A stretch of 64,000 nucleotides of DNA, taken from a virus. Taxonomy: Duplodnaviria; Caudoviricetes. Of the stretch, positions 1-45,582 are shown in pieces. The notes beneath the pieces were generated by a model. That model worked only from the letters and a program-made list of their open reading frames with translations. It was not told the origin of the DNA and did not search any database. The stretch is taken from positions 160,001-224,000 of IMG/VR virus record IMGVR_UViG_3300046820_001270, one strand, 5' to 3'. Numbering within the stretch: the first letter of the stretch is position 1; each line of letters begins with the position of its first letter. The translations under genes and the position numbers were made by a program.

Positions 1-1
1 C

Positions 2-520
2 GTTGGTGGTAAAACATATCAATCTTTAATATCTCAAGTAAAACCAACTGAAGGAGACACTAATACTAATACTGACACTAATACCAATACCGACACTAAT
101 ACAAGTGTGGATAATAATGTTGAAGGTGATTTTAATGTTGTGGATGATTTTATAAATGAGAGTTATGATGATGACTATAACGAATTAGATAGTTTATTCA
201 CAAATAATTTCGATACTGAGGATGATTACGACGGTGAAATGTTTAGAGGAGACGATGAAGGTTTCAGTAATAAAATGAGACAAAATCAAATCCACAAAAA
301 AATGAGATTATCATCAACAGGATTGGATACATATTATAAAGGTGGAGGTGATTTAAAATCAAATACAATTCCTCGTGATTCCGAAGGTGAAGAAGTTAAA
401 TGGAGTCCAATTAGAGATAATGAAATGCCGTTAGACAAATACCTTGAGAAAAAGAAAATGAAAAATTTGGATGAAGATGAGGACATTGCAATGTTAGACA
501 ATTTATTAAAAAAAGATTAA
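2..520 (+). CDS. Acidic hypothetical protein, 5'-truncated by the window edge, with a Thr/Asn/Asp repeat
   Basis: The frame is open from position 2, upstream of the tracked GTG at 107; it encodes DTNTNTDTNTNTDTNTS then a D/E-rich region. Confidence 0.75.
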   Translation, partial: VGGKTYQSLISQVKPTEGDTNTNTDTNTNTDTNTSVDNNVEGDFNVVDDFINESYDDDYNELDSLFTNNFDTEDDYDGEMFRGDDEGFSNKMRQNQIHKKMRLSSTGLDTYYKGGGDLKSNTIPRDSEGEEVKWSPIRDNEMPLDKYLEKKKMKNLDEDEDIAMLDNLLKKD

Positions 521-530
521 AACAAAATAT

Positions 531-641
531 ATGGGAACAAAGGCAAATAAACCACGTGCTATGAGAAGTAGAAGAAGTGGTATTAAATCATTAAACATAG
601 TTAAGAAAAATTTAGAAATTCTAAAGAAACTTAAGGGGTAA
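531..641 (+). CDS. Small basic protein (36 aa, MGTKANKPRAMRSRRSG...)
   Basis: Not in the ORF track; fills the gap exactly, and its TAA overlaps the next ATG (TAATG). Confidence 0.6.
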   Translation: MGTKANKPRAMRSRRSGIKSLNIVKKNLEILKKLKG

Positions 642-1285
642 TGAAAATATTAATTTCGGAAGAACAATTAAAACGTATTATATCCGAACAACCCGAATCA
701 AGGTTTGCACCAAGAGGTATGTCCAATAAAGAACATATGGATGCTCTTAATAGAACCACTTTAAATCCAAATTTGGATGCTGACGATTATGCGGATATAG
801 TGTCAGGTTTAATTGATGTTATACCTGGTATTGGTAATGGGATATCGGGAGCAATTGATATAACACATGGTATTACCTATATTGTTAGATATTATTATGC
901 AAAAACTATAGAAGAGAAAGTTGAATTGGCCGTAATGGGACTTATTACGTTAGGTATGACATTTATCCCTGTTGGGGGTAATGCAACAAACATATTAGCG
1001 AGAAGTGAAATTAAAACGTTATTAAAGAAAACTCCATATGAAGTACGTTTGATGATGAAAAATATGGGACTTATAAAAAGTGCGGGATTCCAATTATCAA
1101 AACAAGCGTGGAAATATTCTTTCTTAATTGCACTCGTAAAAATATTCAGAGGTCAATTAGATAGTGTAATTGGAGATGTTTCGAGAACTTTAACGTCTAT
1201 CTCCAACAAATCTAAGGAACTAAGTCCTATCTTACAAAACTATATGAAAACTATAAACGAACTTAAAAATATTAACAAGGCGTAA
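641..1285 (+). CDS. Leader-bearing putative virion protein with a pre-toxin-like hydrophobic helical hairpin
   Basis: MKILISEEQLKRIISEQ leader; LIDVIPGIGNGISGAID...LGMTFIPVGG motif. Confidence 0.7.
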   Translation: MKILISEEQLKRIISEQPESRFAPRGMSNKEHMDALNRTTLNPNLDADDYADIVSGLIDVIPGIGNGISGAIDITHGITYIVRYYYAKTIEEKVELAVMGLITLGMTFIPVGGNATNILARSEIKTLLKKTPYEVRLMMKNMGLIKSAGFQLSKQAWKYSFLIALVKIFRGQLDSVIGDVSRTLTSISNKSKELSPILQNYMKTINELKNINKA

Positions 1286-3192
1286 TGAAAATACTTTTAA
1301 GTGAAGAACAATATGGTAAATTGATTGAAGCGAATCAAACTTATTCATTTCCTGAAAATAAAGGGGATCTTGATGCGTATATAAGAAGTTTTACCGAGAA
1401 AAACACTAAAAAAGAATTACAAGTAAAACATAATCCAATTTATTATAGATTATGGGCGGGTGGATTGTTAGATAAGTATTATCCCCCTAAAAAACCAATT
1501 ACCAAAAATGAAATAAAAAAATACATTAAGGATAATAATATTACATTAAAATCAAGTGATATAAAAGGGGATACAAGATCATTATCTCAAATGAATGGAA
1601 CTTATTACCGAGCTGCGTGGAGTAATGGATGGTTAGATGATTTATTTCCAAAAGAAAGTGATAAAAAAATATTTAGTAGAATAAAAAAATATATCAAGGA
1701 TAATGATTTAACAAGATCAACATTTAGGTTCAAAAAGTATTATCATATTGCTATCTCAAAAAATTGGATGGATTTGTTATTTCCACCAACAATTGGAACT
1801 AAAGATGAATTTATTAAAACTTGTAAAAAATCACATAAAGGAAGAGATTATGACTATACGGACATAGATTTTAAAGGTACTGGATATGAAATAACAATTA
1901 TTTGTCATAGAAAAGATAATGAGGGAAATGAACATGGACCATTTACTGTGGGGGCTGGAAAACATAAGTTAGGTGATGGAGAATGTAAAAAATGTTTATG
2001 TCAAGACAGAACAGAAAATTTCATTAAAAATGCAATTGAAAAACACGGGAATAAGTATGGTTATGATAAAGTCGATTTTTGTGATCCAAAGTATCAAGTA
2101 AAAGATACCTCAGGAAAAAATAAACATAGATGGTATTTTCCAATATATTGTGAAACACATAAAACTTATTTTAGACAAAGAACGGATATACATTTAACTC
2201 CACATGGATGCCCTTATTGTGCGGAATCACAAGGTGAATCGGCAATTAAAAAAACATTAGATGAGATGGGGTTAAAATATTCGGCGTGGGAAAGTTTTGA
2301 TTTTTGTACCAATCAAGGTTATAAAGGAAGAAAATGTACTGATTTAGAATTTGATGTTTATATCCCCGATATGAAAACTATTATTGAATACGACGGAGGA
2401 GGACACTTTGGACCAATTGATTATTTTGGAGGACAAGATACTTTTACACAAGTTGTACATTACGATAATTTGAAAAATGAATTTTGTGATGGACAATATA
2501 ATATACGTGGAACTCATATTGAAAAACTAATACGTATATCAGATAAAACCCCATTAAACGAAATACCAAGTGAAGTTAAACGTTTAATTATGGGTAAAAG
2601 AAAAGGTTTGTTATTATCAAAAAATTACCCATCCGCTGGTTGGAATGGAGGTGGTATAAACGAATCCAAATTATCGTTTGAAAATGTCTTAACCGAAAAG
2701 TTAAGAGATATGGTGTCAATTCCAATCTATCACCATACCACAGAGGAACGTGCTTTGGGTATTATGAATAGTAATATGTTAAAAGGATCTAAACAATATG
2801 AGGAGGTTTTAAATTTAGATAGAACATTAAAACAATCCAAACATAAAACAATGGTTTCCTTTACTCGTGATAAGAACTTTATACCAGATGGGTCTATTGG
2901 TAATTCTGGGGATGGTCCTCGTATTAAACCTGATATGTTGAACGTAATCTTTGTTGCAGATAGAAGTCGTCTTAAATCACGTTATAGGGTGGTTCCTTTT
3001 GATTATGGAACAATTGCAAATAAAGCTTGGATGGATCCAGTTCCACGTAGTCGTAAAAACCCTGAGGTAGAAGAAAGAGTATTAACTGATCGAATATATC
3101 CATTAAGACAATACCTTACAAATATTATTTATACAGGTCAAGATCTTGAGATACAAAAGAAGATAGATGAGTATCTATCGGGTATTAAATAA
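1285..3192 (+). CDS. Leader + homing-endonuclease-like region (Y..A...GWLD repeats, Zn-ribbon repeats, PD-(D/E)XK/Vsr-like nuclease) + C-terminal ADP-ribosyltransferase-like domain
   Basis: HG..YDY...IIC...HG.F..H..G..C..C repeats; FDVYIPDMKTIIEYDGGGHF; C-terminal YHHT / VSFTR / EVEER. Confidence 0.65.
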   Translation: MKILLSEEQYGKLIEANQTYSFPENKGDLDAYIRSFTEKNTKKELQVKHNPIYYRLWAGGLLDKYYPPKKPITKNEIKKYIKDNNITLKSSDIKGDTRSLSQMNGTYYRAAWSNGWLDDLFPKESDKKIFSRIKKYIKDNDLTRSTFRFKKYYHIAISKNWMDLLFPPTIGTKDEFIKTCKKSHKGRDYDYTDIDFKGTGYEITIICHRKDNEGNEHGPFTVGAGKHKLGDGECKKCLCQDRTENFIKNAIEKHGNKYGYDKVDFCDPKYQVKDTSGKNKHRWYFPIYCETHKTYFRQRTDIHLTPHGCPYCAESQGESAIKKTLDEMGLKYSAWESFDFCTNQGYKGRKCTDLEFDVYIPDMKTIIEYDGGGHFGPIDYFGGQDTFTQVVHYDNLKNEFCDGQYNIRGTHIEKLIRISDKTPLNEIPSEVKRLIMGKRKGLLLSKNYPSAGWNGGGINESKLSFENVLTEKLRDMVSIPIYHHTTEERALGIMNSNMLKGSKQYEEVLNLDRTLKQSKHKTMVSFTRDKNFIPDGSIGNSGDGPRIKPDMLNVIFVADRSRLKSRYRVVPFDYGTIANKAWMDPVPRSRKNPEVEERVLTDRIYPLRQYLTNIIYTGQDLEIQKKIDEYLSGIK

Positions 3193-3197
3193 ATTAT

Positions 3198-3869
3198 ATG
3201 ATAATTCATAGACCAGCACATACAAGATCTAATCCAAAAAATAATTGGATTAATTCGTATAGAACATTTAGTTTTCCTCCGTATTTTGATCCGAAGTATA
3301 TTAACTTTAGTTATTTACAAACAATCAATGACGATAGAGTTCAACCAAAAGGTCAAGTCGCAATGCACGAACATAAGAATATGGAAATATTTGGTTATGT
3401 TGTTGAAGGTGTTTGTAGGCACACGGATAGTCACGGAAACATATTAGATATACCAGCGGGAGCCGTCCAAAGAATGTCTTGCGGTTCAGGTATAAGACAC
3501 ACTGAGGGAAACACAACAGACACCCCAAATCGTTATTTACAACTATGGATAAGACCTAATGTAAAAGATACAGAACCAATACACGAATGGTATCAATTCA
3601 CAAGAGAAGATAAACTAAATAAGTTTTGCGATATAACGGAGAAATTACCCATAAAACAGGACGCAAGATTGTTGGCAGGTATATTCACAGAAAACTTTAG
3701 TTTTGACCTTAATTCGTCTCGTAAGTACTACCTGTACGTAGTATCAGGAATGTCTACCTTAAACGACACACCATTAATAGAAGGAGATGGTTTAAGCTTC
3801 ACAGAGGAAGATAAAATCAATATAATTACGGATACGGAAATCGAAATCATTTTGTTTGATTTAGGGTAA
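3198..3869 (+). CDS. Pirin family protein (YhhW/quercetin 2,3-dioxygenase-like)
   Basis: SYRTFSF..YFDP, INDDRV, HEHKNMEI, HTDSHGN, VQRMSCGSGIRHTE, LQLWIRP. Confidence 0.9.
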   Translation: MIIHRPAHTRSNPKNNWINSYRTFSFPPYFDPKYINFSYLQTINDDRVQPKGQVAMHEHKNMEIFGYVVEGVCRHTDSHGNILDIPAGAVQRMSCGSGIRHTEGNTTDTPNRYLQLWIRPNVKDTEPIHEWYQFTREDKLNKFCDITEKLPIKQDARLLAGIFTENFSFDLNSSRKYYLYVVSGMSTLNDTPLIEGDGLSFTEEDKINIITDTEIEIILFDLG

Positions 3870-3877
3870 TATTTATA
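3870..3877 (+). promoter_or_regulatory. TATTTATA motif, putative phage late promoter (representative copy)
   Basis: Same 8-mer on the sense strand about 4-14 nt before ATG at 6105, 6636, 17923, 25067, 25521, 27692 and 50958, and 35 nt before it at 60572; reverse copies precede minus-strand genes at 11306, 15028, 19658, 31735 and 37923. Confidence 0.7.
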
Positions 3878-3881
3878 TCTA

Positions 3882-5330
3882 ATGAAGCTTCAGGTAACAG
3901 AATCACAATTAAAACTTATTGAACAACAACAGTTAAATGAACTGAAGTGGTTGGCTAATGTTCAATCACACATTGTTAAAATGGACGTTCCGTTGACACC
4001 GTCGTTGGTAAACTATATTTGGGGAAGTCAAAGAGTTACAACATTCCACGTCGGAGATGTTAACGGTATTAATGAGATTGGTGCAATGGTTGGAACGAGA
4101 AAATCTTTATCTACATTTAGATTTATGGATAAGGAATTGGTTAAAAATATGAAAGGGGTTCAAACCGAAGGTGGAATTATCTATCAAATTGTTGGAGATT
4201 TACAATTCGACTCACCAACAGATGTTATGAGTGCTCCTGATGAGACAGGTAGAAGATGGGTAAACATTAGAAGTTTCCATAATGACTTTCAAAATAAAGT
4301 CGAACTTGAATATGTAAAGTATGAGAAATTTGGAGATATGGATGAACTATCAAAATCCCCAAAAAATTTAATAGAATATTATAGACTAATGGACCAATTG
4401 GTTCGAGAAAATGCAAAAGAAATTCGTGAATATTTTACCGACATTAAAAAGAACAGAGGTGGAAGGGAAAGTTTATGGAATGAAACTGTTGTGAATAATA
4501 TTGAGGTTAAGGACATATTATGGAAAGAGGATATTGTTGCATTTTTAGATAATTGGGAAACAAAAGAACAAAGGTTAAGTGTACTTGACAAAATTGGTAT
4601 AAAATTGAGTTCTATATCCACAGGAACCGTTTATTTGGCTGATAGAGGTGGTACGTTTGGTTTTAGAGATATTAATCCAGTTAAATGGGTTGAACAAAGA
4701 GGAGGTCTAACTAATTTTAAAAAATACGTTAAAAAATTCCATGTAGATAGTGAACCAAAGAGAATACGGATCAATGAGGATAAACCAAACCCTAATAACC
4801 CACCATTTATAAAATATGGTCAGGGTTATGTTTTAATTACACCCGACAAACCTATAGATAAAACTGCGTGTGTTATTTTCGGTGGTTGGAATACTACAGA
4901 TGGTAATCACAAACATTTAGTAAAATTTATTCCTGAAAATTTACAATATAAAAAAACAATATTAATTACAGTACCTGGTGCAAGTATGGGTGATTTAAAA
5001 AGGATGTTAGGTAATACAAAAATTAAATCTATAATAGGTTTTGAGGAAGGTGGAATGAACGCATGTAAGTATGCTGGTGAATATGATGTAGTTGGGTTAA
5101 TTAACCCCGTTTTAAATAAAGATTCACAAAGATATCATATTAACGATAAAAGAGTTTTCATGTTATATGACCCAAATAAGGGAATTTTAAATGGTAATAA
5201 AATTGAACGAGGAGATAAATACCAAAAAGAATTTGCTTCAATTATGACGGGTAATGCTATACCACTTAAAGATTATAAAAGTGAAAATATGTTAACTTAT
5301 TTCCTTAATAAGTTTCAAAATAATATTTAA
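3882..5330 (+). CDS. Leader-bearing two-domain protein: ART-like N-domain + alpha/beta-hydrolase-like C-domain
   Basis: MKLQVTESQLKLIEQ leader; TFHV / SLSTF / LWNET; CVIFGG and IIGFEEGG elbow-like motif. Confidence 0.5.
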   Translation: MKLQVTESQLKLIEQQQLNELKWLANVQSHIVKMDVPLTPSLVNYIWGSQRVTTFHVGDVNGINEIGAMVGTRKSLSTFRFMDKELVKNMKGVQTEGGIIYQIVGDLQFDSPTDVMSAPDETGRRWVNIRSFHNDFQNKVELEYVKYEKFGDMDELSKSPKNLIEYYRLMDQLVRENAKEIREYFTDIKKNRGGRESLWNETVVNNIEVKDILWKEDIVAFLDNWETKEQRLSVLDKIGIKLSSISTGTVYLADRGGTFGFRDINPVKWVEQRGGLTNFKKYVKKFHVDSEPKRIRINEDKPNPNNPPFIKYGQGYVLITPDKPIDKTACVIFGGWNTTDGNHKHLVKFIPENLQYKKTILITVPGASMGDLKRMLGNTKIKSIIGFEEGGMNACKYAGEYDVVGLINPVLNKDSQRYHINDKRVFMLYDPNKGILNGNKIERGDKYQKEFASIMTGNAIPLKDYKSENMLTYFLNKFQNNI

Positions 5331-5882
5331 TTAAATTGTAATTCCCTTTTTTTGATTGTATTTGATCATTGATTTAATATTTTTAGAATAATTACATCCG
5401 GGACAATAATCAGTATCCAATTTTTTATAATATCCATCAACGTTTAATGAACTATAACCAAGTTCGTCTTGCATTAATTTGTAATCTTTAACTGAATCAA
5501 CCCAATTGTTATATGTTGCATGATTTCTATTAGTACCTGTTGCAACATTTTTTCTTTGTTTTGGTTGTTTCATCCCAAACAAATTATTATTCTCTTTGAA
5601 CACATTACTTTTAAAATGTTCGCTTTCCCAAAAAGCTTGTGCTAGTGCAATATTTGGGTACTTAATACCTTGTTTAATAATCTCAGCTTTTAAATTTTCT
5701 AAACTAAATGGTTTAGGTTCTGTTTTTTCGGATGTTTTTGGTTTATTAGATTTAGTTAAACGATCATAAGCCGATTTACCCATATCATAAACCGATCTAC
5801 CAAGATTAACAGCATTTAAACCATCTATTTGTTCATTAATTAACCTATCAAGATCACTTTTTTTAATTCTAATAATTTTCAT
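5331..5882 (-). CDS. Leader-bearing glucosaminidase (FlgJ/GH73-like peptidoglycan hydrolase)
   Basis: ALAQAFWES, NNLFGMK, ATYNNWVDSVKDY. Confidence 0.8.
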   Translation of the reverse strand: MKIIRIKKSDLDRLINEQIDGLNAVNLGRSVYDMGKSAYDRLTKSNKPKTSEKTEPKPFSLENLKAEIIKQGIKYPNIALAQAFWESEHFKSNVFKENNNLFGMKQPKQRKNVATGTNRNHATYNNWVDSVKDYKLMQDELGYSSLNVDGYYKKLDTDYCPGCNYSKNIKSMIKYNQKKGITI

Positions 5883-5925
5883 ATGAAACTATATACTTTT
5901 TTAATATTTTAAGTTAAAATGATAC

Positions 5926-5992
5926 CCAGTATATACTAGTATTATTTATTACTAGATTAATAGCTAGATTCTAGTACTAGAATAAATACTGG
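5926..5992. repeat. CTAG-rich inverted-repeat element between divergent genes
   Basis: CCAGTAT(5926-5932)/ATACTGG(5986-5992); perfect palindrome ATTCTAGTACTAGAAT 5968-5983; five CTAG in 45 bp. Confidence 0.8.
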
Positions 5993-6125
5993 ATAAAATA
6001 GAAAAGTTGAGATGTTTTAATTGAAAAAGATGTACACCTTAAAGTACATGAACCCATGTTAATTGATCTTAAGGGTAAAATTGATACTAATCTCTAAATC
6101 CAAGTATTTATATAAAAACACACAA

Positions 6126-6587
6126 ATGGGAAAGAAATTTAAAATTACAGAAGACCAACTAAAAAGATTGGTTGAAAACAAAAGTAGAATTCAAGAACAA
6201 AATGAAGGATATATGGATGAAGAACTTGACGGACCTTCAAGAGAAGAATATTTTGCTAAACACGGAGATGATAATATGGGTTGGACAGGTAGTTCAAACA
6301 AAACATATCAAGATTTACCTGATGGTGACTATGATGATGAAACGTATGATGATTTTGATACATTACATAATGCTTATCCTAATTTTCATTCACATTATTC
6401 AGGTAAAGGTGAGGTAGATCGAGCAAGAGGAATGTTTGGTACATATAAAAACCTTCGTGGTCCATTACGTATAAAGAAAAGAAGATCTATGGATGAGATG
6501 GGCGTGAAAGAAGATGGTATGATGAACGAATCGATTAAACAATATAAAACCGAATTTGAGAGGTTTTTAAAGAAACCAAAACAATAG
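6126..6587 (+). CDS. Leader-bearing acidic hypothetical protein (start revised from 6063)
   Basis: TATTTATA at 6105 precedes ATG 6126; MGKKFKITEDQLKRLVE. Confidence 0.75.
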   Translation: MGKKFKITEDQLKRLVENKSRIQEQNEGYMDEELDGPSREEYFAKHGDDNMGWTGSSNKTYQDLPDGDYDDETYDDFDTLHNAYPNFHSHYSGKGEVDRARGMFGTYKNLRGPLRIKKRRSMDEMGVKEDGMMNESIKQYKTEFERFLKKPKQ

Positions 6588-6593
6588 TTAATG

Positions 6594-6619
6594 AACCCTT
6601 CAGAAATGAGGGGTTTTTT
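6594..6619 (+). terminator. Intrinsic terminator
   Basis: AACCCTTCA-GAAA-TGAGGGGTT followed by a T-tract. Confidence 0.8.
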
Positions 6620-6647
6620 ATTATATCTATAGGGATATTTATATACA

Positions 6648-8825
6648 ATGAACTTTAACAACATTTTTGAAGAATTACTACTTGAGTTAAGTGGACAGGA
6701 GATATACCAAAAGTATTATTCTAAAATACCATATGAGACTTTTTTAGATATTGTAATGGCTGACCCGAAAACAAACATAAGTGGATCAGGTGAATTACTA
6801 TCAATAGGAAAATATTCAAAATTATTATTATCATTTTATCAAAAGGGTAGTTTAAGGGATGAGGATTTAGCAAAGGCTGAAGAATATTTGGAATGTGTTT
6901 ATTCCCATAATATCGCATTAGACGTAAGTAAATTAAAAAATTTAGGGGACTTATATCAAGTAGTTCAAAAATATCTTATTTCGGACACACAAGATCTTAA
7001 TGAAATTTTAAAGGCACTTGTTATCGATCAAGATTACAAATTACTACATCAAGGTAAAGATTGGGATTTTTATCAACCTCTTACCGAAAAAGGATCATCA
7101 TATTTAGGATTTGCTACCGAGTGGTGTACCGCTTGGGGTCAGTATTGTCTTAATAAAAAATATAGAGAAAGGCAAAACCATTTTGAAAGACATAACGGAC
7201 AAGGACCTTTATTCATTATGATGAGTAAAATTAATCCATTAAACAAATATCAATTTCATTTTGAAACAAATCAATTTATGGATCCAAAGGACAGTAGAAT
7301 TAATTTTACTGAATTTTGGCCAAATAAAGATGAAATTAAAAATTATTTCTTCCCATCATTAGTTAGAGAAACATCTGAGGAAGAAGTAAAAAATGAATTA
7401 CAAAGAATTTCAATTTTACCTGATGCAGATGGTATGGTAATATTAAAGAAATCAATCGGAACTGTTAACAATCCTTTAGTGGAAGCAATCATAAATGAAG
7501 ATGAAGACGCATTAGAAGATTTGGTTGATGGTGAAGAAAGAGATGGTTCTGTTTATGTTTATAGTGGTAGACTTATTATACAAGTTGACGGGATACCAGG
7601 AGACGATGCTGAGGGTGTTGAAAGATCAATAGATCAATATAGGGGAGAGTCGAATAATGGTTGGGAGTGGGTTCACAGTGATATTGAAAATAGATATTAC
7701 GACGTAAGTGATTATGAAGATGATTTTGAAAAAATTTTTAAATCTTATTACGATAATCACAAAATAATATTACAACAAGAATTGGGTATTAATTCATATG
7801 AAATTTTTAAAGAAGATTATTTTGACAATTATCTTGGTGATAATCATATTGTAGATACTTTTGTAGATGATATAACTGATTTATCATATGCAAGTTATGA
7901 AGCCGAAAATGATAGAGAGGCGGATGCGATTGAAAAGTATTTGTCTTTTGGTTCTTCAGATGAACTTAATTTTTCAATTGTTTTTTTAGTACAATTTTTA
8001 ATTAAAAGAAATATTGTTGGACTTGGTGGGAATTATGATTGGACAATACAAGACATGGTTAGTAGTTATATTAGTCATTATAAATTAACAACTGAAATAG
8101 ATGAACCGGTATATAATTATGAGACAACATATCCAAAATATGGAGACAATAATTATATTACGAAAAGTACTGATGAACATTTCGGTAAATTATTAGATAA
8201 CCCTGAAACAAATCATCAATGTGTAGAATTAAGAAAACAATTAAATTATATTATTAAAACTTTATTTAAAGGATCAAACAAATTTGAAAATGATCATGTA
8301 AAAATTAAGTTAAAATCAAATAAAATTGATTGTGAAAAGGGGACAGTTAATATTGAATTTGTAAATAAAGATACGGGTCAGGTTTTCTACGATAATAATG
8401 TTAAAGTTGAAAATTTACCGAGATATGCAACTAACTACGAATTGAATTTAAAAGAAAATAAAAAAATGAAATTAGTTATAACAGAATCTCAATTAGAAAA
8501 TTTAAAGAAGTCGGTTGGTAAAGGAGAAGATATAGGTGAAAGAAGTCGTAGTTTTGCGTTTACAAGAAAGAAAAGAAAATTTAGTAAACCTGAAAGAATG
8601 TCTAATCCACTTAGATATAAAGAAAAGGATAGATTGGAAGAGGAAGGTGAAGAACATAATTTTAATAAACCGTTAACACCTGAACAAATAAAAAGTATTG
8701 AACAAATAAACAAAGACGCTAAGTTCCTTACTTGTAGAAACTGTAGACATAAATTTACACAAACGACACATAAAAAGAAGAAATCTTTACCTATTTGTCC
8801 AACTTGCGGAACACATAATAAATAA
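6648..8825 (+). CDS. Large hypothetical protein with a conserved phage 'WC' domain, an internal second leader and a C-terminal Zn ribbon
   Basis: TEWCTAWG...KYQFHFETNQFMD; in-frame MKLVITESQLENL at 8466; CRNC..CPTC. Confidence 0.7.
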   Translation: MNFNNIFEELLLELSGQEIYQKYYSKIPYETFLDIVMADPKTNISGSGELLSIGKYSKLLLSFYQKGSLRDEDLAKAEEYLECVYSHNIALDVSKLKNLGDLYQVVQKYLISDTQDLNEILKALVIDQDYKLLHQGKDWDFYQPLTEKGSSYLGFATEWCTAWGQYCLNKKYRERQNHFERHNGQGPLFIMMSKINPLNKYQFHFETNQFMDPKDSRINFTEFWPNKDEIKNYFFPSLVRETSEEEVKNELQRISILPDADGMVILKKSIGTVNNPLVEAIINEDEDALEDLVDGEERDGSVYVYSGRLIIQVDGIPGDDAEGVERSIDQYRGESNNGWEWVHSDIENRYYDVSDYEDDFEKIFKSYYDNHKIILQQELGINSYEIFKEDYFDNYLGDNHIVDTFVDDITDLSYASYEAENDREADAIEKYLSFGSSDELNFSIVFLVQFLIKRNIVGLGGNYDWTIQDMVSSYISHYKLTTEIDEPVYNYETTYPKYGDNNYITKSTDEHFGKLLDNPETNHQCVELRKQLNYIIKTLFKGSNKFENDHVKIKLKSNKIDCEKGTVNIEFVNKDTGQVFYDNNVKVENLPRYATNYELNLKENKKMKLVITESQLENLKKSVGKGEDIGERSRSFAFTRKKRKFSKPERMSNPLRYKEKDRLEEEGEEHNFNKPLTPEQIKSIEQINKDAKFLTCRNCRHKFTQTTHKKKKSLPICPTCGTHNK

Positions 8826-8840
8826 TATTATTAAGATTAA

Positions 8841-9971
8841 CTACAAACACTTAGCCCCTAAATTCCATTGTGTTCCTACAACGGGACTATATACTCTCAT
8901 AGTAACGGATGACATACTTTCATCTTTTGTTATGGTGATACCAACAGAACCATTATGATAAGGATTTAATTCCCAAAAATCGGGATCGTCGGTTGTGGTT
9001 TGTTTAATTGTGGTATTATCAGTAAAGGTATATAATGGTGTAGTTTGTAAAAACTCATCAATAAGTTTCATATTATTTGTTCCTTCACGCATAAATCGTT
9101 CATGATCAATAACATGTCTAAATAAACTCCATAAATCACTTACTCTCTTTCCTTCGAACATATCCAAAGCGTCGTATTTATCTAAACGAACAAAATTATT
9201 TGGAAAGTAATTAGGGATTTTACCTCCGTAACCATAAACTAAAGTTGTCGCAATACATGCGTTGACGAGTGGATCCGATGCTTGGTTGGAAACAAGTCCA
9301 GTGCTTTGAGAAAAAGAACCCGCATTAACCACTAACATATCCGCCATTGAATGTGGAGAAAATACTATTTTAAATTTAGTACCATTTGGTAATTTACTAA
9401 CATCAATTGTTTTTGTGTAACCAACAAAATCATCTTCTTTTTTGGCAACACCACCCTCCATATTTTCAGTAAAATTACAGATTGTTTCTATCGTTCTACT
9501 ACCAATAATTTGTAATGATAATGTAACGTATTGATTTTTTTTGTACTCTATCCAATCCTTACCCTTTTTCGGGTCCCAAGAAGGTCCTTGAACTCCTTTG
9601 TCTATTTTATTGATTTTAACATTTTCCGGTACACTTGATAACATAAATTTTTCTACCTCATCGGCCCTTAAACGTGATAAATCACCAACCTTCATTCCCG
9701 CTGGAGGTGGTACCGCTGATTCGGAGGATTCTACATTAATAATAAATTGTTGATTATTTGGGTAATCTTTAATTTCAGTATTTATTTTATTCATTGCGTC
9801 ATTAATTGATTTAGTGTTTGTCAATTTATATTGACCACTTGCAAATGAATTACTAATGTTGTAAACTTGTGACGGTTTAGTTTCAGTATAACTAGATAAT
9901 ACTTTTTGTTCATTAATCACCACTTTAGTGATTAAATCTTCAATCTGTTTTTCTAATAATATAATTTTCAT
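8841..9971 (-). CDS. Leader-bearing OmpA-C/MotB-like domain protein
   Basis: FASGQYKL...SSES...DLSRLRADEV...NQYV pattern; paralog of the neighbouring gene. Confidence 0.55.
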   Translation of the reverse strand: MKIILLEKQIEDLITKVVINEQKVLSSYTETKPSQVYNISNSFASGQYKLTNTKSINDAMNKINTEIKDYPNNQQFIINVESSESAVPPPAGMKVGDLSRLRADEVEKFMLSSVPENVKINKIDKGVQGPSWDPKKGKDWIEYKKNQYVTLSLQIIGSRTIETICNFTENMEGGVAKKEDDFVGYTKTIDVSKLPNGTKFKIVFSPHSMADMLVVNAGSFSQSTGLVSNQASDPLVNACIATTLVYGYGGKIPNYFPNNFVRLDKYDALDMFEGKRVSDLWSLFRHVIDHERFMREGTNNMKLIDEFLQTTPLYTFTDNTTIKQTTTDDPDFWELNPYHNGSVGITITKDESMSSVTMRVYSPVVGTQWNLGAKCL

Positions 9972-9991
9972 TGTTATTTCTAAATTGTTTT

Positions 9992-11299
9992 TTATTTCTT
10001 AGGTGGTTTACCACATAAGTCAGTTCTAAGAAGTGCGGTTTCACTCATACTACCTCTTGCCATTTTTACATTTGGTTCACCTTGGTAGAGGTTTCCTTCT
10101 TTATTATTAATTATAACAAATGGAACTTCAGCATGTGAACCATATAAATAAAACATACTATAATCACCCTCACTACCAACTAAAGGTTTAATTGATAAAA
10201 CTATTTCTTCCGCAGGGGCATTGTCTATTATTGATTTGGCCGTTTTACCATCTAATATAAATGTTTGTGAACGAACCCCACCCCATTTATTATCACTATA
10301 TCTATTATTATTTTTATTAATAGAATTATTAACCTTTTCTATATATTCAATATATGGTTCGTATTCATAAGAACCGGTTAATTCTGCATGTTTTGATATA
10401 TATTTATTTAAAAAAACTATTCTATTATCTTCAATAACCGGAGTGGGCTCATCACCTACAATTTTATAAATGTATTGTGCCATTTTTTGGTTGTTTGGAT
10501 TTTTTATTTTACCTTTTTCAATATCCGATAACCAAATTTGATATGCCATTTTTTGTTTATTTTCATATTCAGATTTTACATCAACACCTTTTTTAATGAT
10601 TTGTCTAAATTCAGGTGATGAAATAGTATCTAAAACACCATTGTTTAAATTTACAACTCCTATTGAAACTCCATTCATTTTTAAATCAAATATCGCCTCA
10701 TCACAATTATGTACAGCTTTAGTTTTACTTTGGTCATACATTAACGTAATTTCTAAACCTATAAGACATTCGTAATCTTTACTAGTACTAATAATTGCAC
10801 TTACAAATTGTTCTTTTTGATATAAACTTGTTAATTTCGGATTTTTTAAATCGTTAGATCCACTGTATGGGGTATCCCCAGTTTTTGTTTGAGGTTCTGG
10901 TATTTTAGGTAATTTATCTATGGATCCATTATCAAGAAGATCTTTAAAATATTTACCTAAATAATTAACCATTTGTTCTCCTCTTTTTTGTGATAAAATT
11001 CCTGTGGCTAATTTTGGTTTAGATGGATCTTCATTATCTACGTTTGTTACTTTACTTTCTCCTGCAACAATTTGTATTGTTATATTACTTCCTTTATTCT
11101 TATTGATAAAATTGGTTATTTTAGATAATTCAGGATTTAATTTACTTATTTGACTAGAAGTTAATTTCCAATAACCCATCGGCCAAATAGACCCTAATGG
11201 AACGGTCAATGATTCTGTTCTAACTTCATTTTGTTCGTTGACAACTAATTTATCGACCATCCTCTTAATCTGATCTTCCGTTAAAATTACTTTCTTCAT
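9992..11299 (-). CDS. Leader-bearing OmpA-C/MotB-like domain protein
   Basis: WPMGYWKL...AGES...ILSQKRGEQMVNYL...EQFV. Confidence 0.55.
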   Translation of the reverse strand: MKKVILTEDQIKRMVDKLVVNEQNEVRTESLTVPLGSIWPMGYWKLTSSQISKLNPELSKITNFINKNKGSNITIQIVAGESKVTNVDNEDPSKPKLATGILSQKRGEQMVNYLGKYFKDLLDNGSIDKLPKIPEPQTKTGDTPYSGSNDLKNPKLTSLYQKEQFVSAIISTSKDYECLIGLEITLMYDQSKTKAVHNCDEAIFDLKMNGVSIGVVNLNNGVLDTISSPEFRQIIKKGVDVKSEYENKQKMAYQIWLSDIEKGKIKNPNNQKMAQYIYKIVGDEPTPVIEDNRIVFLNKYISKHAELTGSYEYEPYIEYIEKVNNSINKNNNRYSDNKWGGVRSQTFILDGKTAKSIIDNAPAEEIVLSIKPLVGSEGDYSMFYLYGSHAEVPFVIINNKEGNLYQGEPNVKMARGSMSETALLRTDLCGKPPKK

Positions 11300-11359
11300 G
11301 TTATATATAAATACTTTAAAAAGATAAGTTGTATTTATTAGTATATAAATAGAAAAATT

Positions 11360-12202
11360 ATGTTATTAAAATTAGGATCAACGGGAGACGACGTTGTAAA
11401 ATTACAAAATAAATTGGGCGTTGACCCAATAGGTAAATTCGGACCTAAAACCGAAGCTGCGGTAAAAGCTTGGCAATCTCAGAACGGGTTAACCGCAGAT
11501 GGTATTGTTGGAGATGGTACTTGGAGTAAATTATTTGCTGAAGGTACAGTATCCGCTCCGACCTTAATAACTGAGCCTGCACCAATTAGGAGTTCAGGTG
11601 GGTTAAAATTAGAAAAATTAAAGGGACATATTCCCGATGCGGTTATAGCTCAAATTCCTGACACAGCAGCTAAATTCCAAATAGACACACCGTTACGTTT
11701 GGCTCATTTCTTAGCTCAATGTGGACATGAAAGTGGTGGGTTTAGACTTACAAAAGAAAATTTAAATTATTCAGCGAAAGGTCTAACAGGTACATTTAAG
11801 AAGTATTTCCCAACAGAAGCTGCGGCAAAACCATACGAAAGACAACCTGTAAAGATTGCAAATAAGGTATATGGTGGAAGAATGGGTAATGGTCCTGAAT
11901 CATCAGGAGAAGGGGCTAAATTCTGTGGTAGAGGATATATCCAATTAACGGGTAAAGACAACTACACGGCATTTGGTAAATCAATTAATGAGGATATCTT
12001 ATCAAATCCTGATAAAGTTGCAAGTGATTATGCGTTATTATCTGCGGCTTGGTTCTTCTCAAAGAACGGTTTACATAAGATGGCCGATGAGGGTTCATCT
12101 GATACAGTTGTAACTAAAATTACAAAAAGAGTTAATGGAGGTACAATTGGTTTGGCTGATCGTATTAAACACTTTAAAGAATATTATTCATTATTATCAT
12201 AA
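11360..12202 (+). CDS. Endolysin: PG_binding_1 domain + GH19 lysozyme/chitinase
   Basis: LQNKLG..G.FGPKTEAAVKAWQ..GLTADGIVG; AHFLAQCGHESGGF, ENLNYS, GRGYIQLTGKDNY. Confidence 0.92.
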   Translation: MLLKLGSTGDDVVKLQNKLGVDPIGKFGPKTEAAVKAWQSQNGLTADGIVGDGTWSKLFAEGTVSAPTLITEPAPIRSSGGLKLEKLKGHIPDAVIAQIPDTAAKFQIDTPLRLAHFLAQCGHESGGFRLTKENLNYSAKGLTGTFKKYFPTEAAAKPYERQPVKIANKVYGGRMGNGPESSGEGAKFCGRGYIQLTGKDNYTAFGKSINEDILSNPDKVASDYALLSAAWFFSKNGLHKMADEGSSDTVVTKITKRVNGGTIGLADRIKHFKEYYSLLS

Positions 12203-12228
12203 AAAAAGGGACTTTATAGTCCCTTTTT
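12203..12228. terminator. Bidirectional terminator between convergent genes
   Basis: AAAAAGGGACT-TTAT-AGTCCCTTTTT. Confidence 0.85.
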
Positions 12229-12231
12229 AAT

Positions 12232-13866
12232 TTAATACATTTCTTTTATATCTACATCCGTTTCAGGATCTAAATCACTGAATCTACGTGAATCGTCATC
12301 ATCATTTTCTTCGTCTTTAGGATGCATTTTAGTACCTTCTAATTCCGCCCATTTCTTAGCACCAATAAAGTGGCCTCCGGCCAATTCATTATCCTCATCG
12401 ATAGGATAAACACAATATAGTGTACGATTATCAATCGGACCATTCTCACCTACCACATATGTCTCAACTAAGTATGACTTGTCTTGATCATCAATGTATA
12501 ATATAGTTGATGATTCCGTATAATGAGGTTCAAACATAACTCCATCGTAAACAACCCAATTTGTTTTATCTAAATGATATAAACCAAAATTTTTCTTATT
12601 CTTCTTACTTTTATATAATCTAATCTTAGGATTATCAATACTTGTTCTAGCAGTAATAAATTCATTCTCCATTAAATGTTGGTAAATGAACGCCACACCT
12701 AAATCCGCTAAACTCTGATTTGAAATTCTACCTTGTTGATCTTGTCTTGATCCTACAGATTTAAGTGTACTATCTAATAGTCTAAATTCATTACCAACTT
12801 TTTTAATAGCAGACATTATTTCATATGACGAAAATTTATCAATAGCGTCTCTTGCAGTTACCGTTAAGATATATAGATTTCTAAGGTTGGTATCCATACT
12901 CTTCCAAGACTTTTCGGTTGATATTACCCCTCCTCCATCTAAATAAGCCTTTTTTAATTCTCTTCTTGCCGCTGCAAATTCATTTCTACCTGGATTTTCA
13001 GTAAGTCGATTGGCCATGTTTCTGTCGAATAATTCGGCCTCATCGTAAGCGATGTATTCAAACTTATCTTTATGTTCCGCCAATTGTGGATATATTCGAA
13101 TAACTTCTTCCCATGTTTTAGGGTTATCACCATCATTCAACATACTAGTCATTCTAAAACCGGTATATCCATTATCACGTACACAATATTGTAATGCACA
13201 TATGTAATATCTGTTAATATCCTTATTTGGGTTGTCTTTAGGATTTTTAGATTCATCCATAACAAACCAAAACGTTCTTCTTGGTCTATATGTTCCCCAT
13301 AAATTAGAACGAGAATCTGACGTATTTCTACCCGTTACACACCATTGAAGACCCCCGTGTTTTTCAGCCATTGCTTGTTGGTAAAATCCATACTTAATTG
13401 ATTCTCTAGCGTCAGATACATAGTGTACTTTAAATCCTTCTTCACTAATAATTACGTCTCTATCACTTGACCATAATTTTTTAGATGCTGCAATCTTCTT
13501 TTCGTCAGATGTTAATTTACCTTTAAATTCATCTTCTTCACCTGCAGTTAACACAGCATCTCTAAATTCGTGTAATAAAGATTCAATTTCTTCTAAACTG
13601 TATTGACTAATATCCATTAATTTAGATGGATCAAATGCGGGTAAACCACGAGTACCGTCGTGTCTCATTAAAAAAGTATAGACGGCCGGATTATTAACGG
13701 TTAAACTTTTTTGTTTTTCCATGAATAATGTTAAATCGGCTTCAGCTTGTTGTATTTGTTCTGGAGTTGGATTATCACCAAACCATTTTTTTAATAGAAA
13801 GTTAAATAGTTTCTTATTTTTAACCTCTTCTACTATAACGTCATAAACTAAATCTTGTATGTTCAT
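12232..13866 (-). CDS. Hypothetical protein with a 'WC' domain, paralog of 6648..8825
   Basis: GLQWCVTG...NLWGTY...FWFVMD. Confidence 0.7.
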   Translation of the reverse strand: MNIQDLVYDVIVEEVKNKKLFNFLLKKWFGDNPTPEQIQQAEADLTLFMEKQKSLTVNNPAVYTFLMRHDGTRGLPAFDPSKLMDISQYSLEEIESLLHEFRDAVLTAGEEDEFKGKLTSDEKKIAASKKLWSSDRDVIISEEGFKVHYVSDARESIKYGFYQQAMAEKHGGLQWCVTGRNTSDSRSNLWGTYRPRRTFWFVMDESKNPKDNPNKDINRYYICALQYCVRDNGYTGFRMTSMLNDGDNPKTWEEVIRIYPQLAEHKDKFEYIAYDEAELFDRNMANRLTENPGRNEFAAARRELKKAYLDGGGVISTEKSWKSMDTNLRNLYILTVTARDAIDKFSSYEIMSAIKKVGNEFRLLDSTLKSVGSRQDQQGRISNQSLADLGVAFIYQHLMENEFITARTSIDNPKIRLYKSKKNKKNFGLYHLDKTNWVVYDGVMFEPHYTESSTILYIDDQDKSYLVETYVVGENGPIDNRTLYCVYPIDEDNELAGGHFIGAKKWAELEGTKMHPKDEENDDDDSRRFSDLDPETDVDIKEMY

Positions 13867-13917
13867 ACTACATAAATATATAATAAATACCTTTTTATCA
13901 ATATAAAAACGGGTATA

Positions 13918-14271
13918 TTATTGAGATATGAACACGTCGGAGTTTGTTAGATTTTTTTTAAGGGTAGATAGTTCATCTGTCACCGATTTTAATAACCTCT
14001 CAATCATAAGGATTTTCATTAAACTATCAGCATCCGTTGTACTAACATCATTGGTTTGACCACCGAAAAGAGCTAACTTAATTAAACTATCGGTTTCATT
14101 TTTAGATTGTTTTTCTTTCTTTCTTTGGAAATATCTTCTAGAATTCTCCCTTGTACAGTCAATACAGTAATTACTATGACCATCTAAAACTAACTTGTTC
14201 TTGTAAAAATTGTCAAGTGTTTTCGGTGTTTTACACCCCGAACATCTCTTCTCATTTTTCTCTTCAGACAT
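13918..14271 (-). CDS. Zn-finger protein resembling the N-terminus of endonuclease VII/HNH proteins, without a nuclease core
   Basis: CSGCKTPKTLDNFYKNK...GH..YC..C. Confidence 0.65.
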   Translation of the reverse strand: MSEEKNEKRCSGCKTPKTLDNFYKNKLVLDGHSNYCIDCTRENSRRYFQRKKEKQSKNETDSLIKLALFGGQTNDVSTTDADSLMKILMIERLLKSVTDELSTLKKNLTNSDVFISQ

Positions 14272-14294
14272 AAATCTATTTTTTGATTAAGAAA

Positions 14295-14327
14295 CAAAGG
14301 TAATGTATATTAAAAGAAAAACCCAAA
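14295..14327 (-). promoter_or_regulatory. Bacteroidota sigma70-type promoter
   Basis: TTTG-N21-TACCTTTG on the minus strand. Confidence 0.75.
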
Positions 14328-14376
14328 TATCATAAAAAATATTTGGGTATAACTTATTTTATATTATATTTTAATA

Positions 14377-14718
14377 TTACCACCAACTTTCATGTTTAGA
14401 TACTAATTTGTCAAAAACCTCCTTTTCTTTTGGTGGCATTTTCTCTTCGGTATCAGGTCCCCACACACCATCGGTTGGGTAAACACGGACAATATCTTGA
14501 TACATTCTAATTGCCTCTTCAGTTGCAGAATTACGTCCAGTTCTACCATCAATAGTTAATTGTTTGAACTTTGGTATTGTTTTTAAACGAAGATTTAAAA
14601 ATTCCTGTACCGCCTTTATTTTATTTCTTTCGTAATTCTGTTCATTGATTTGAGTTCCCGTCATTTGACTATCAATAATTTTCTTAATTTGACTTTCAGT
14701 GAATATATATTTTTTCAT
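14377..14718 (-). CDS. Leader-bearing peptidoglycan-binding domain protein
   Basis: KAVQEFLN...IDGRTG...AIRMYQ...DGVWGPDT. Confidence 0.7.
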   Translation of the reverse strand: MKKYIFTESQIKKIIDSQMTGTQINEQNYERNKIKAVQEFLNLRLKTIPKFKQLTIDGRTGRNSATEEAIRMYQDIVRVYPTDGVWGPDTEEKMPPKEKEVFDKLVSKHESWW

Positions 14719-14719
14719 A

Positions 14720-15022
14720 TTATTTAGTTATTGTCCTTCTTTTTTTAATTAAATTATCGTTCTCTTTAGTTAGATATTCAACTTTAACGGTCAACGCGGC
14801 CACTTCTCTTGTTAAATTCAATACCATTGTACGTAGTTCATCTTTTTCACTTGCGGATTGTTCCAATAAGGCCTCCAATTTAGAGATACGATCTTTACAG
14901 TCATGTCTGATGAAGTCCTCATCTTTCTCCTTATGCATTGCTCTTCTTTCGTAGTATCTCCAAGCACCTCCACCACCTAAGATGGTTACTGCGGTGATTA
15001 ATACTGAATAAATGTTTTCCAT
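14720..15022 (-). CDS. Membrane-anchored coiled-coil protein (start revised from 15046)
   Basis: One N-terminal TM segment then heptads; motif at 15028-15035 precedes ATG 15022. Confidence 0.7.
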   Translation of the reverse strand: MENIYSVLITAVTILGGGGAWRYYERRAMHKEKDEDFIRHDCKDRISKLEALLEQSASEKDELRTMVLNLTREVAALTVKVEYLTKENDNLIKKRRTITK

Positions 15023-15244
15023 ATTGTTATAAATAGTGTAATACAAAATAAAATTTAACTTTTTCTAAGTTGGTGGGGGTAATAACCCGAATTAATTTTT
15101 ACCTGTCAAATCGACACTCTTTTTTTGGGTATTTTCCTAATCAATAACTTATTTATTTTTGTTGTCGGGGGACAAAATAAACTTATTAAATTAATATACG
15201 GGAGATTTCACAAACTCCCCTTTTTTATGTATATTAGGTAAGAT

Positions 15245-15796
15245 ATGAGTAAGATAATTAATTTTTTTGGTGGGCCGGGTATAGGTAAATCCACCCAAGC
15301 ATCAGGTTTATTTACAGAGATGAAAAAACACCATATGAGTGTTGAATACACTTATGAGTTTCCAAAAGAAGTTGCATGGGAAGGAAATGTGTCCCAATTG
15401 AAGGATCAGTTCTTTATTACCGCAAATCAACATAGAAACATTAGTCGTCTTTATGGTAAGGTCGATTATATTATTGTTGATTCACCGATAGTATTGGGTT
15501 GTTTTTACGAACAACGATACGGTGAAGGTTATCCCGCATCACATTACTCAATGTCAGGTTTAAGTAATTTTCTTTGGAGTTTATTTAAAAGATATGACAA
15601 TATAAACATTTTATTAAAAAGGAACGATGAGACATATGATACAAATGGTAGACTTCAGGATTTACAGGAAGCTATCGAAATTGATGAAGACATTAAACAA
15701 ACATTGGATGTTAATAACATACGTTATAGCGAATTTTCTGTTAATAATGATACTGCTTTGGACATTTACAGCTATTTAATAGAAAACAATTTATGA
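15245..15796 (+). CDS. P-loop nucleoside/nucleotide kinase (NadR/AAA_28-like)
   Basis: GGPGIGKST Walker A; EFPKEVAWE. Confidence 0.8.
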   Translation: MSKIINFFGGPGIGKSTQASGLFTEMKKHHMSVEYTYEFPKEVAWEGNVSQLKDQFFITANQHRNISRLYGKVDYIIVDSPIVLGCFYEQRYGEGYPASHYSMSGLSNFLWSLFKRYDNINILLKRNDETYDTNGRLQDLQEAIEIDEDIKQTLDVNNIRYSEFSVNNDTALDIYSYLIENNL

Positions 15797-16452: not shown

Positions 16453-16661
16453 TGTTAAATAAAGAATTAGTAAATTATCAAAATAAACTTTATTATATCT
16501 TTAAAAAGATAAAACAAGAACGTATTGTGGAAGGTTCTGTTAATGATTTAAGGGTACATTGGAGATGTGATATTGTTGTTAAAAGTAGAGTCAATAACGA
16601 CGACACACTTCTTTTTTTAGTGGAAATTCCTGAAGCTGAGATCGTAAAAGATCTTATTTAA
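16452..16661 (+). CDS. Hypothetical protein
   Basis: Translationally coupled ORF. Confidence 0.65.
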   Translation: MLNKELVNYQNKLYYIFKKIKQERIVEGSVNDLRVHWRCDIVVKSRVNNDDTLLFLVEIPEAEIVKDLI

Positions 16662-17873: not shown

Positions 17874-17945
17874 AAAATATCATTTATATTATAATATAAC
17901 GATTTTCTTTTGTAATACAAAATATTTATATAAAAACATATACAC

Positions 17946-44051: not shown

Positions 44052-44348
44052 ATGAATGTATCGTTTGATTATAATGAAATGAAGAATTTTATATCACACA
44101 CAGGTAAATATAAAATCGTAAATGTTAAGTGTTTTATTATAGTAGCCGGTAGTTGGTATAATCAATTTAGAAGAGAAGAAGAAGAGGTAGATATGGAAGT
44201 GGCTTATCTAATAGATGATATTGAAACTGAAAAATGGATATTTGATGAAAGATATAGGAAAAGAAAAGACGAACTTATGATGTGGAGTATCGAATCGGTT
44301 TTTTATAGAGAGTACAAAAGTAAAATATTAAATTTATTATATAAGTGA
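44052..44348 (+). CDS. Hypothetical protein
   Basis: ORF within the operon. Confidence 0.55.
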   Translation: MNVSFDYNEMKNFISHTGKYKIVNVKCFIIVAGSWYNQFRREEEEVDMEVAYLIDDIETEKWIFDERYRKRKDELMMWSIESVFYREYKSKILNLLYK

Positions 44349-45238
44349 AAAAACTAATAATCATATTATCCTTACTTTGTATAAGTTTTGTTTCAAACGC
44401 ACAAATCGTAAAACCTGATACATTACAATTATCACCAAAAGAATTATTTGGAGAGAGTGATGATTGGAACGATGTGGGTATATTGCAATCCTATGTTAAT
44501 TTTTCAAAAGATGTTCTCTCATCATCAAACCTTTCAGTTGGTATAATTGGTAGGCAAGTATCTACAACTCTTAATTTAGGTTACAATAAATCATCTATGA
44601 ATGGTCAATGGGCCCACACATTTGCGGCATCAATAAATCCTATATGGAACTACTATGGAGTAGGTTATGGACTTAGTAGAAATACAGAAAAAAGAACAAC
44701 AACAATACAAACATTTTATTCTACGGATTTTGATTTCCAAAAAGATATTACATTATCATTTATAGATGTGTTTAGAACAAAAAAGTATGGAACATTCGGT
44801 TATAGTTTAACAGCATCAAAATCATTTTGGGGAACTTATCAAGGTGAATGGGAAGGAAAATATACGGTAGATGAAAATGGTGATTTTAAAGATTTAATAT
44901 ATCCACAAATGCCGGCATCATCCGAACTTTCTTATAGAGGTATGGTGATGTACACTTATACATTGAAAACAAAAAGGGTGAATATTTCACCGCAAATATT
45001 TGCAATGAGTGATGTATATAAAGTATTTAAAGATGGTACCAAATCGGATTTAGCATATGTAGATGATTTCAATTTGGATTTATATTATGGTACATCTATT
45101 GATTGGAAAATAACTAAAAGATTTGTGTTGAATACTAATATTAGATATAACACAACTTGGGATAAATTAAGTGAATCAGTTGGTTATAAAAAAAGTAACC
45201 CAATAATGTTTATGATAGGAACAAACTTTCAATTTTAA
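44345..45238 (+). CDS. Outer-membrane beta-barrel protein
   Basis: GTG start, signal peptide ending NAQ, alternating aromatic strands, C-terminal FMIGTNFQF. Confidence 0.7.
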   Translation: MKKLIIILSLLCISFVSNAQIVKPDTLQLSPKELFGESDDWNDVGILQSYVNFSKDVLSSSNLSVGIIGRQVSTTLNLGYNKSSMNGQWAHTFAASINPIWNYYGVGYGLSRNTEKRTTTIQTFYSTDFDFQKDITLSFIDVFRTKKYGTFGYSLTASKSFWGTYQGEWEGKYTVDENGDFKDLIYPQMPASSELSYRGMVMYTYTLKTKRVNISPQIFAMSDVYKVFKDGTKSDLAYVDDFNLDLYYGTSIDWKITKRFVLNTNIRYNTTWDKLSESVGYKKSNPIMFMIGTNFQF

Positions 45239-45582
45239 TGAAAAAGATAATAATCATATTAATTTTATCGTTGGTGTCGTGTAAAAAAACACAAGTTCCA
45301 CCCACACCACAAACCATAAATAAAGAATTTTTCAATTCACGTGAAAATAACGTTAAAAATGGGGATATTATTAATTTTACCTTAACCACAGTTGGTGTTT
45401 ATACTTTAACAATGATTGATACGGTTCAAAATCAAGTTATTACCAGAGAAAAATTCACAGGTAAAATTGGTATAAACTCACTTAAAATATTTACAAAAAC
45501 TTTACCGACAAAATACCTAAGTGTCGTTTTAAAGGATCAAAATAATCAACAGATAGGTAAAACAAGAATAACAATAAACTAA
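45238..45582 (+). CDS. Lipoprotein with Ig-like/T9SS-CTD-like domain
   Basis: Lipobox LVSC; GVYTLTM..; YLSVVLKD. Confidence 0.6.
   Translation: MKKIIIILILSLVSCKKTQVPPTPQTINKEFFNSRENNVKNGDIINFTLTTVGVYTLTMIDTVQNQVITREKFTGKIGINSLKIFTKTLPTKYLSVVLKDQNNQQIGKTRITIN

Follow-up and report, generated by a model that had tools for sequence, protein, structure and literature searches.

A probable homing-endonuclease cassette fused in frame to the front of a DarT/Tpt1-like ADP-ribosyltransferase gene in a giant T4-like phage

Selfish nuclease genes limit the harm that they cause by lying between genes, by residing in self-splicing introns or inteins, or by splitting genes whose halves continue to work. 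The present study concerns an open reading frame (ORF) at nucleotides (nt) 1285..3192 (+) of a 64,000 nt stretch of DNA, here called the window, which covers positions 160,001-224,000 of the IMG/VR record IMGVR_UViG_3300046820_001270 (Caudoviricetes) and comes from an uncultured, AT-rich, giant T4-like lake phage. The ORF encodes a homing-type nuclease and, in the same frame, a domain with the fold of the ADP-ribosyltransferases (ARTs). At a probability that we put at about 0.7, it is a chimera: a small DarT/Tpt1-like ART gene has lost its first eight codons, and a mobile homing-endonuclease cassette stands in their place. The locus suggests a further harm-limiting route, namely in-frame entry into a disposable protein front, with a short peptide joint that rebuilds this front together with a likely protease site.

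Vsr-like and GIY-YIG nuclease genes have been described in 'fractured genes' (Dassa et al., 2009; PMC2677866). With these fractured genes, and with the free-standing homing genes of T4-like phages (seg, mob and Hef), the present locus shares the alternation of the same two nuclease families at one phage site, presence or absence between close relatives, tight packing against a conserved host gene and expression signals borne by the cassette. However, unlike in those cases, the nuclease here lies in the frame of the host gene, to which a conserved peptide joint connects it; split-intein halves are absent, the host gene has not been broken in two and every nuclease carries a phage N-terminal tag. 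An open host frame and the behaviour of a homing element are also features of inteins and of the ShiLan-type insertion, which lies in a phage methylase (PMC11855218). Unlike in inteins, there is neither a Hint domain nor a splice junction here, and a separate protease, working in trans, would have to carry out any removal. Furthermore, the nuclease is in the host frame, whereas that of ShiLan is out of frame, and the site of insertion is an N-terminal pro-segment, not the interior of a folded domain.

Other parallels concern the targeting of proteins to the capsid. The T4 protease gp21 cleaves after L/I-x-E, and the packaged ART Alt is trimmed at both ends (PMC9026906). The present system resembles that of T4 in having a short N-terminal tag (the leader) ending in [LI]-x-E on unrelated proteins, an ART cargo like Alt and a gp21-type protease in a relative. 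However, unlike Alt, the ART is of the DarT/Tpt1-like type and a 445-residue nuclease part stands between tag and cargo, and packaging and cleavage are predictions here. The PeSL elements that Arbiol et al. reportedly described in 2010, repeated regulatory cassettes at which T4-type phages shuffle modules, also offer short conserved gene-boundary sequences as crossover points for cassette exchange. Unlike the flanks in PeSL elements, the conserved flanks here (the leader and the joint) are coding sequence, so that exchange preserves the reading frame. Neither the nuclease families nor the ART fold nor the T4-type leader logic is new in itself; the novelty lies in the in-frame exchange of unrelated homing nucleases at the front of a packaged-type ART, with a conserved leader on one side and a conserved joint on the other. 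The exchanged nucleases probably lie inside the ART propeptide.

The slot ahead of the ART gene and the layout of the fused ORF

The window was compared with 13 IMG/VR loci that keep its gene order (denoted by L-numbers). This order is orfA, an ORF of 36 amino acids (aa), a variable slot, the ART gene, an optional pirin gene, orfD and, on the opposite strand, a glucosaminidase gene. The slot is anchored on its left by the very basic 36-aa ORF (531..641, +), which is also seen in L001, L002, L004, L005, L007, L009 and L011, and the stop of which overlaps the ATG of the next gene in every case, whether this is the ART gene, a GIY-YIG nuclease gene or a leader gene. In six of the 13 loci the slot is empty, and this stop and the ART start overlap with nothing in between. 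Compared with the empty allele L001, the window is 87.6% identical up to nt 649 and, from the codon of E471 at nt 2695 onward, 93.2% identical. The homology gap from 650 to 2694 amounts to 2,045 bp in the window, against 15 bp in the empty allele. The inserted segment contains orfB (641..1285, +), which encodes 214 aa with a long leader and hydrophobic Gly-rich stretches, and the nuclease cassette. By tblastn, orfB had no counterpart in any of the 13 loci; in its place L011 carries a different 485-aa leader gene that is alike in the leader only.

Stand-alone ART genes form approximately 30 clusters of 173-174 aa that are 72-92% identical to the C-terminal domain of the ORF and begin with a short N-terminus, MKLQDILLEKLRDM. 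Fused alleles are the minority, with eight of 51 distinct ART sequences and one of the 13 IMG/VR loci. The original prediction, made from the letters of the window, was that a selfish-type nuclease had been inserted in frame, and it gains support from these comparisons: presence or absence varies at the exact site, most homologs are ART alone rather than sharing the full-length architecture, and two unrelated nuclease families alternate. It had also expected relatives in which the leader is joined directly to the ART domain. This arrangement was found in the distant P0069, P0071, P0060 and P0074 (P-numbers denote protein relatives or clusters) but only there, as the empty allele of the close relatives starts with the short N-terminus given above. 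The possibility that the long leader is the ART's own, split by the insertion, is not supported in close relatives on account of that short N-terminus and holds for distant members only.

The ORF itself is a single unbroken frame of 635 aa, all parts of which are read on the + strand. It opens with a long (class-A) leader (aa 1-15, 1285..1329), which ends in L-I-E followed by A. The same peptide stands at the head of P0001-P0004 and P0006, and no fewer than six ORFs of the window carry the leader or a variant of it, as do 14 ORFs of G001, a relative from IMG/VR (335,630 bp) with which the window is collinear. The leader is followed by three helical repeats (aa 16-171, 1330..1797), the YY..GW(L/M)D..FP cores of which lie at aa 53, 107 and 152 and which are probably the DNA-binding module of the nuclease cassette. 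Similar repeats occur upstream of the GIY-YIG domains in P0003, P0004 and L002 (4766..6001), and the alignment of P0005 to the 635-aa protein starts at aa 72. The Hef-like nuclease (aa 172-454, 1798..2646) comprises Zn-ribbon repeats, with CxxC ribbons at aa 234 and 309, and a Vsr-like PD-(D/E)XK core. A GGG linker and a 13-aa joint (aa 455-470, 2647..2694) then lead into the ART-fold domain (aa 471-635 and the stop, 2695..3192), which, by its homology to the empty allele, corresponds to the stand-alone 173-aa gene. The joint includes I-N-E (nt 2656-2664, aa 458-460), and the first codon of the ART part is the E of L-T-E (nt 2689-2697, aa 469-471). Motif, profile and fold searches confirmed every particular of the predicted arrangement of leader, repeats, Zn ribbons, PD-(D/E)XK nuclease and a domain with YHHT, SFTR and EEER motifs, and I-N-E had been placed correctly.

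Two conventional explanations of an uninterrupted frame were rejected. For an intein, a Pfam search of the 635-aa protein gave no Hint/intein match and no LAGLIDADG match, and there is no His-Asn/Cys-Ser-Thr splice junction, the insert starting with A after E15 and ending in ..N-E followed by S. For a group I or group II intron, an Rfam search of nt 1..6000 of the window at E <= 0.1 gave no match, and the frame is continuous at the DNA level. The lack of intein termini and of a group I core that had been remarked upon earlier agrees with the empty Pfam and Rfam searches.

The nuclease was assigned by several methods, including PHROG profiles, tblastn and AlphaFold2 (AF2) models searched with Foldseek. 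Residues 172-431 match PHROG 559 (E 1e-24) and PHROG 9084, 'homing endonuclease' (E 2e-12), and tblastn found relatives of the nuclease part in 615 phage records, many of them from jumbo phages. An AF2 model of aa 296-457 has a predicted local distance difference test (pLDDT) score of 80.8, and its Foldseek matches are exclusively PD-(D/E)XK nucleases, namely Vsr, I-Bth0305I, PvuRts1I and AbaSI. These matches have weak E values (5e-3 to 4e-2) with probabilities of 0.9-0.97, the template-modelling (TM) score being 0.46-0.47 for Vsr (1cw0) and the TMt 0.56 for I-Bth0305I (3r3p). The nearly invariant columns of alignment A2 (H8, C14, C17, D62, P66, H79 and K102) are all kept in the query nuclease. 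Precomputed annotations place the relatives P0001, P0002 and P0005 in the Pfam family DUF723 (PF05265), which was unreported for the query at E <= 0.1. A sequence search of the PDB with the nuclease gave no match, and a metagenome scan with it found relatives at 30-38% identity and none closer. The native C-terminus of this nuclease subfamily is ..YPxxGWN(K), a free-standing copy in G001 (44070..45380) ending in ..GWNK, and the GGG linker and joint begin exactly there. All complete nuclease ORFs in the loci start with a leader of one or the other class.

The C-terminal domain (165 aa) contains the motifs YHHT, SFTR and EVEER. The family-invariant forms Y-H-x-T, S-x-T-R and E-x-E-E are, to judge from the alignment, candidate catalytic or NAD-binding residues. 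An AF2 model of the domain (pLDDT 84.6) has the ART fold. Its best matches in VIA-align are the DarT structures 7yk3 (Z 9.7) and 7omv (Z 9.0) and the Tpt1 structure 7yw4 (Z 9.1), all of the top 30 rows being ART-fold proteins, and Foldseek gave probabilities of 0.99-1.0 with TM scores of 0.46-0.47. The Pfam family Tox-ART-HYD1 matched weakly (E 0.071). By its modelled structure the domain belongs to the DarT/Tpt1-like branch of the ART fold. Between the window and free alleles, the ratio of nonsynonymous to synonymous divergence (dN/dS) of the ART part is 0.03-0.12 at dS 0.36-0.60, so that the ART is under strong purifying selection and is not decaying. A metagenome protein of 1200 aa, P0076, contains five tandem ART-like domains with hydrophobic-x-E-G-K-Q-V-G before each, and its sequence suggests a polyprotein made up of such domains.

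Exchange of nucleases at the joint and movement between alleles

The nucleases found next to the ART gene may abut it or be fused to it. In L002 and L007 the slot holds a free 411-aa GIY-YIG nuclease with the same long leader, the stop of which overlaps the ART start. In G001 the occupant is a free GIY-YIG nuclease with a short-type leader, the end of which falls 2 nt short of the ART start; a fused version of this nuclease forms the body of P0004 (67% identity). Fused GIY-YIG nucleases are present in P0003 and P0004 and fused Hef-like nucleases in the window, L011, P0001, P0002 and P0013, while P0006 has a different upstream part. A joint with the consensus [ILM]-x-E, S/T-K-L-S-F-E-N and three more residues is found in all nine fused forms, including P0008, which has an unrelated cargo; a search for stand-alone relatives of this cargo found none. 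Across these phages, the slot between the 36-aa ORF and the ART codons E-K-L-R-D-M exists in an empty state, in a GIY-YIG state and in a Hef-like state, the last two either abutting or fused.

Two comparisons locate the limits of the exchange. P0013 and the window have 97%-identical ART domains and an identical joint, but the nuclease of P0013 is from another subfamily. DNA homology between the window and the fused allele L011 begins at nt 2657, in the first codon of the joint. At the other end, the leader DNA of the window shares 84.8% identity with the leader of the Hef-like nuclease in L011 and 89.5% with the leader of the GIY-YIG nuclease in L002, whereas the nuclease bodies are unalignable. 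As the long leader DNA is common to unrelated nucleases and is missing from close empty alleles, the long leader belongs to the cassette; as the coding flanks formed by leader and joint are conserved around unalignable bodies, the nuclease bodies have been swapped between these flanks. Modular leader-tagged phage proteins could owe their assembly to such swapping between short coding flanks.

The best reading of the joint is that it imitates the short N-terminal helix of the ART, with S replacing the start M. In the AF2 model a helix spans F465-M476, aa 445-464 are a low-confidence coil and the pLDDT of the joint is approximately 60. A scan of IMG/VR for the joint DNA found at least one true further locus, L114, which is like L011, although the pattern is unspecific in AT-rich DNA. 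The tails of free-standing Hef-like nucleases (L002 1040-1110 and 3300-3365; L001 and L004-L011) resemble the joint, with S/P-K-L-S-L, approximately seven residues and a stop. The late-promoter box of the gene that follows overlaps their last codons, and [ILM]-x-E precedes the tail in two of nine free-standing nucleases compared with nine of nine fused forms.

Movement of the cassette was examined on a maximum-likelihood tree of the 51 distinct ART sequences, which include the eight fused alleles. Eight state changes are needed to account for the fused alleles, at least six of which are forced by well supported branches, and the nearest relative of each resolved fused allele is a free allele. 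This scatter across the ART tree indicates that the cassette moves between alleles. In addition, the variable residues right after E-K-L-R-D-M in fused alleles are all found in free alleles, which places the crossovers immediately after the joint. The incongruence is the pattern that would be expected from a homing element with short co-conversion tracts.

Proposed homing and propeptide release, and competing explanations

The mechanism that we propose is as follows. The cassette consists of the long leader, the probable DNA-binding repeats, the Zn-ribbon/Vsr-like nuclease and the conserved 13-aa joint. The nuclease, the activity of which is predicted, would cut cassette-free alleles near the ART start, and the cassette would be copied in by repair, with the conserved leader and a 19-nt stretch after the joint as putative crossover points. 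The joint would mimic the short N-terminal helix of the ART and retain L-x-E. Since helix and L-x-E are rebuilt in this way, the cassette appears to sit inside a segment that is a removable propeptide across the ART family. A T4-type prohead protease might then release an identical mature ART from both alleles and, in addition, the nuclease in the capsid.

The last step draws on the following observations. G001 encodes a prohead protease of the T4 gp21 type (Peptidase_S77, 72.5 bits), which is 44% identical to those of T4-like cyanophages. In the joint, I-N-E is followed by S and lies in the predicted flexible linker, and L-T-E before K472 corresponds to L-L-E of the free allele. A [LIVM]-x-E motif within 12 residues before strand 1 of the ART core is present in 41 of 46 family representatives, compared with 12% of other windows of the same proteins, and it is found regardless of whether the ART domain comes after a leader (short or long) or after another domain, and also ahead of each of the five domains of P0076; P0090 is among the family members with a ten-residue leader. 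If this Glu marks a maturation site, both alleles would yield the same mature ART, with the cassette wholly in the discarded segment. By analogy with T4, we rate the release of the ART (from either allele) and of the nuclease by the prohead protease inside the capsid at a little under even odds; the rest of the cassette model is independent of it. A more extended proposal is that the nucleases live in a removable capsid-targeting propeptide, that the prohead protease takes the place of self-splicing and frees an intact ART, and that the nuclease is packaged, injected and cuts rival genomes before gene expression; we regard this proposal as tentative and, on balance, doubtful. If packaging does occur, homing nucleases would be delivered as proteins together with the phage genome, which would change the view of competition between co-infecting phages.

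Several points weigh against the cassette model or its final step. The fused alleles share the joint by descent, and its occurrence in nine of nine is not nine independent events. In L002 and G001 the nuclease persists without fusion. The inserted segment also contains orfB, for which the cassette model does not account, and the comparison at the left boundary covers only a minority of fused alleles. Homologous exchange without nuclease action would produce the same tree incongruence. As regards release, the Peptidase_S77 match comes from the collinear relative G001, a counterpart in the window's own genome being presumed, and the conserved Glu that precedes the ART core may have a structural role, as AF2 places it in a helix.

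An alternative that we consider unlikely is that the fusion is functional as made, the DNA-binding parts of the nuclease bringing a DNA- or RNA-modifying ART to nucleic acid without any processing. The nearest folds, DarT and Tpt1, do act on DNA and RNA, the ART of the fused allele is under the purifying selection described above and fusions have lasted across 51-55% divergence of the nuclease. However, most alleles are free, the same ART is found with unrelated nucleases or with none, the at least six changes of state look opportunistic and the joint lies in a flexible linker.

Slightly less likely still is that the nuclease has been domesticated as a leader-tagged virion effector, for example for the degradation of host or rival DNA, the variation at the site being ordinary shuffling of accessory genes. 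The leaders of the nucleases are also those of cell-wall enzymes and further cargo, and plain recombination could exchange modules at the conserved flanks. Nevertheless, presence or absence at a single site, alternation of Vsr-like and GIY-YIG nucleases, multiple copies per genome and gene-tree incongruence are together the classic signs of homing endonucleases (PMC2677866), and these argue for the mobile cassette.

It is improbable that the ART is made separately by internal initiation, for instance at M476, with the upstream fusion being inconsequential. An in-frame ATG at aa 476 does follow a purine-rich stretch, and the 160-aa cluster P0024 is called from this Met. However, no late-promoter box for the ART was found between nt 1 and 3125, the same codons are present in free alleles, so that nothing about them is specific to the fusion, and a start at M476 would lose the conserved helix and L-x-E. 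That the fused frame is a recent accident (stop loss) or an assembly error, as the minority status of fused alleles might suggest, is very improbable, given same-joint fusions in many independent metagenomes (ENA, JGI and Logan), joints that differ synonymously between the window and L011, and the low dN/dS of the ART.

Genome context and neighbouring genes

A megablast search of nt 1-20000 of the window against cultured and deposited phages gave no match. The window also contains a ClpB-like gene and an RNA ligase gene, and ARAGORN identified a tmRNA gene (31046-31443, -) and an array of 11 tRNA genes (36924-39307, -).

Directly after the ART gene lies a pirin-like gene (3198-3869, +; Pfam Pirin, E 1e-23), which is present in the window, L004, L010 and L011 and is missing from most other relatives, giving a second presence/absence difference at this locus. 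Further downstream, an ORF of 725 aa (6648-8825, +) contains an internal copy of the long-type leader at approximately 8463-8520, about 110 aa from its end, followed by a small Zn-ribbon segment; to judge from its sequence, a further leader-tagged gene may have been fused in frame here. In orfD (3882-5330, +), the first ~297 aa are kept in all relatives, and the C-terminal part is swapped or truncated in several loci, in which the matches cover residues 1-297, 1-362 or 1-480.

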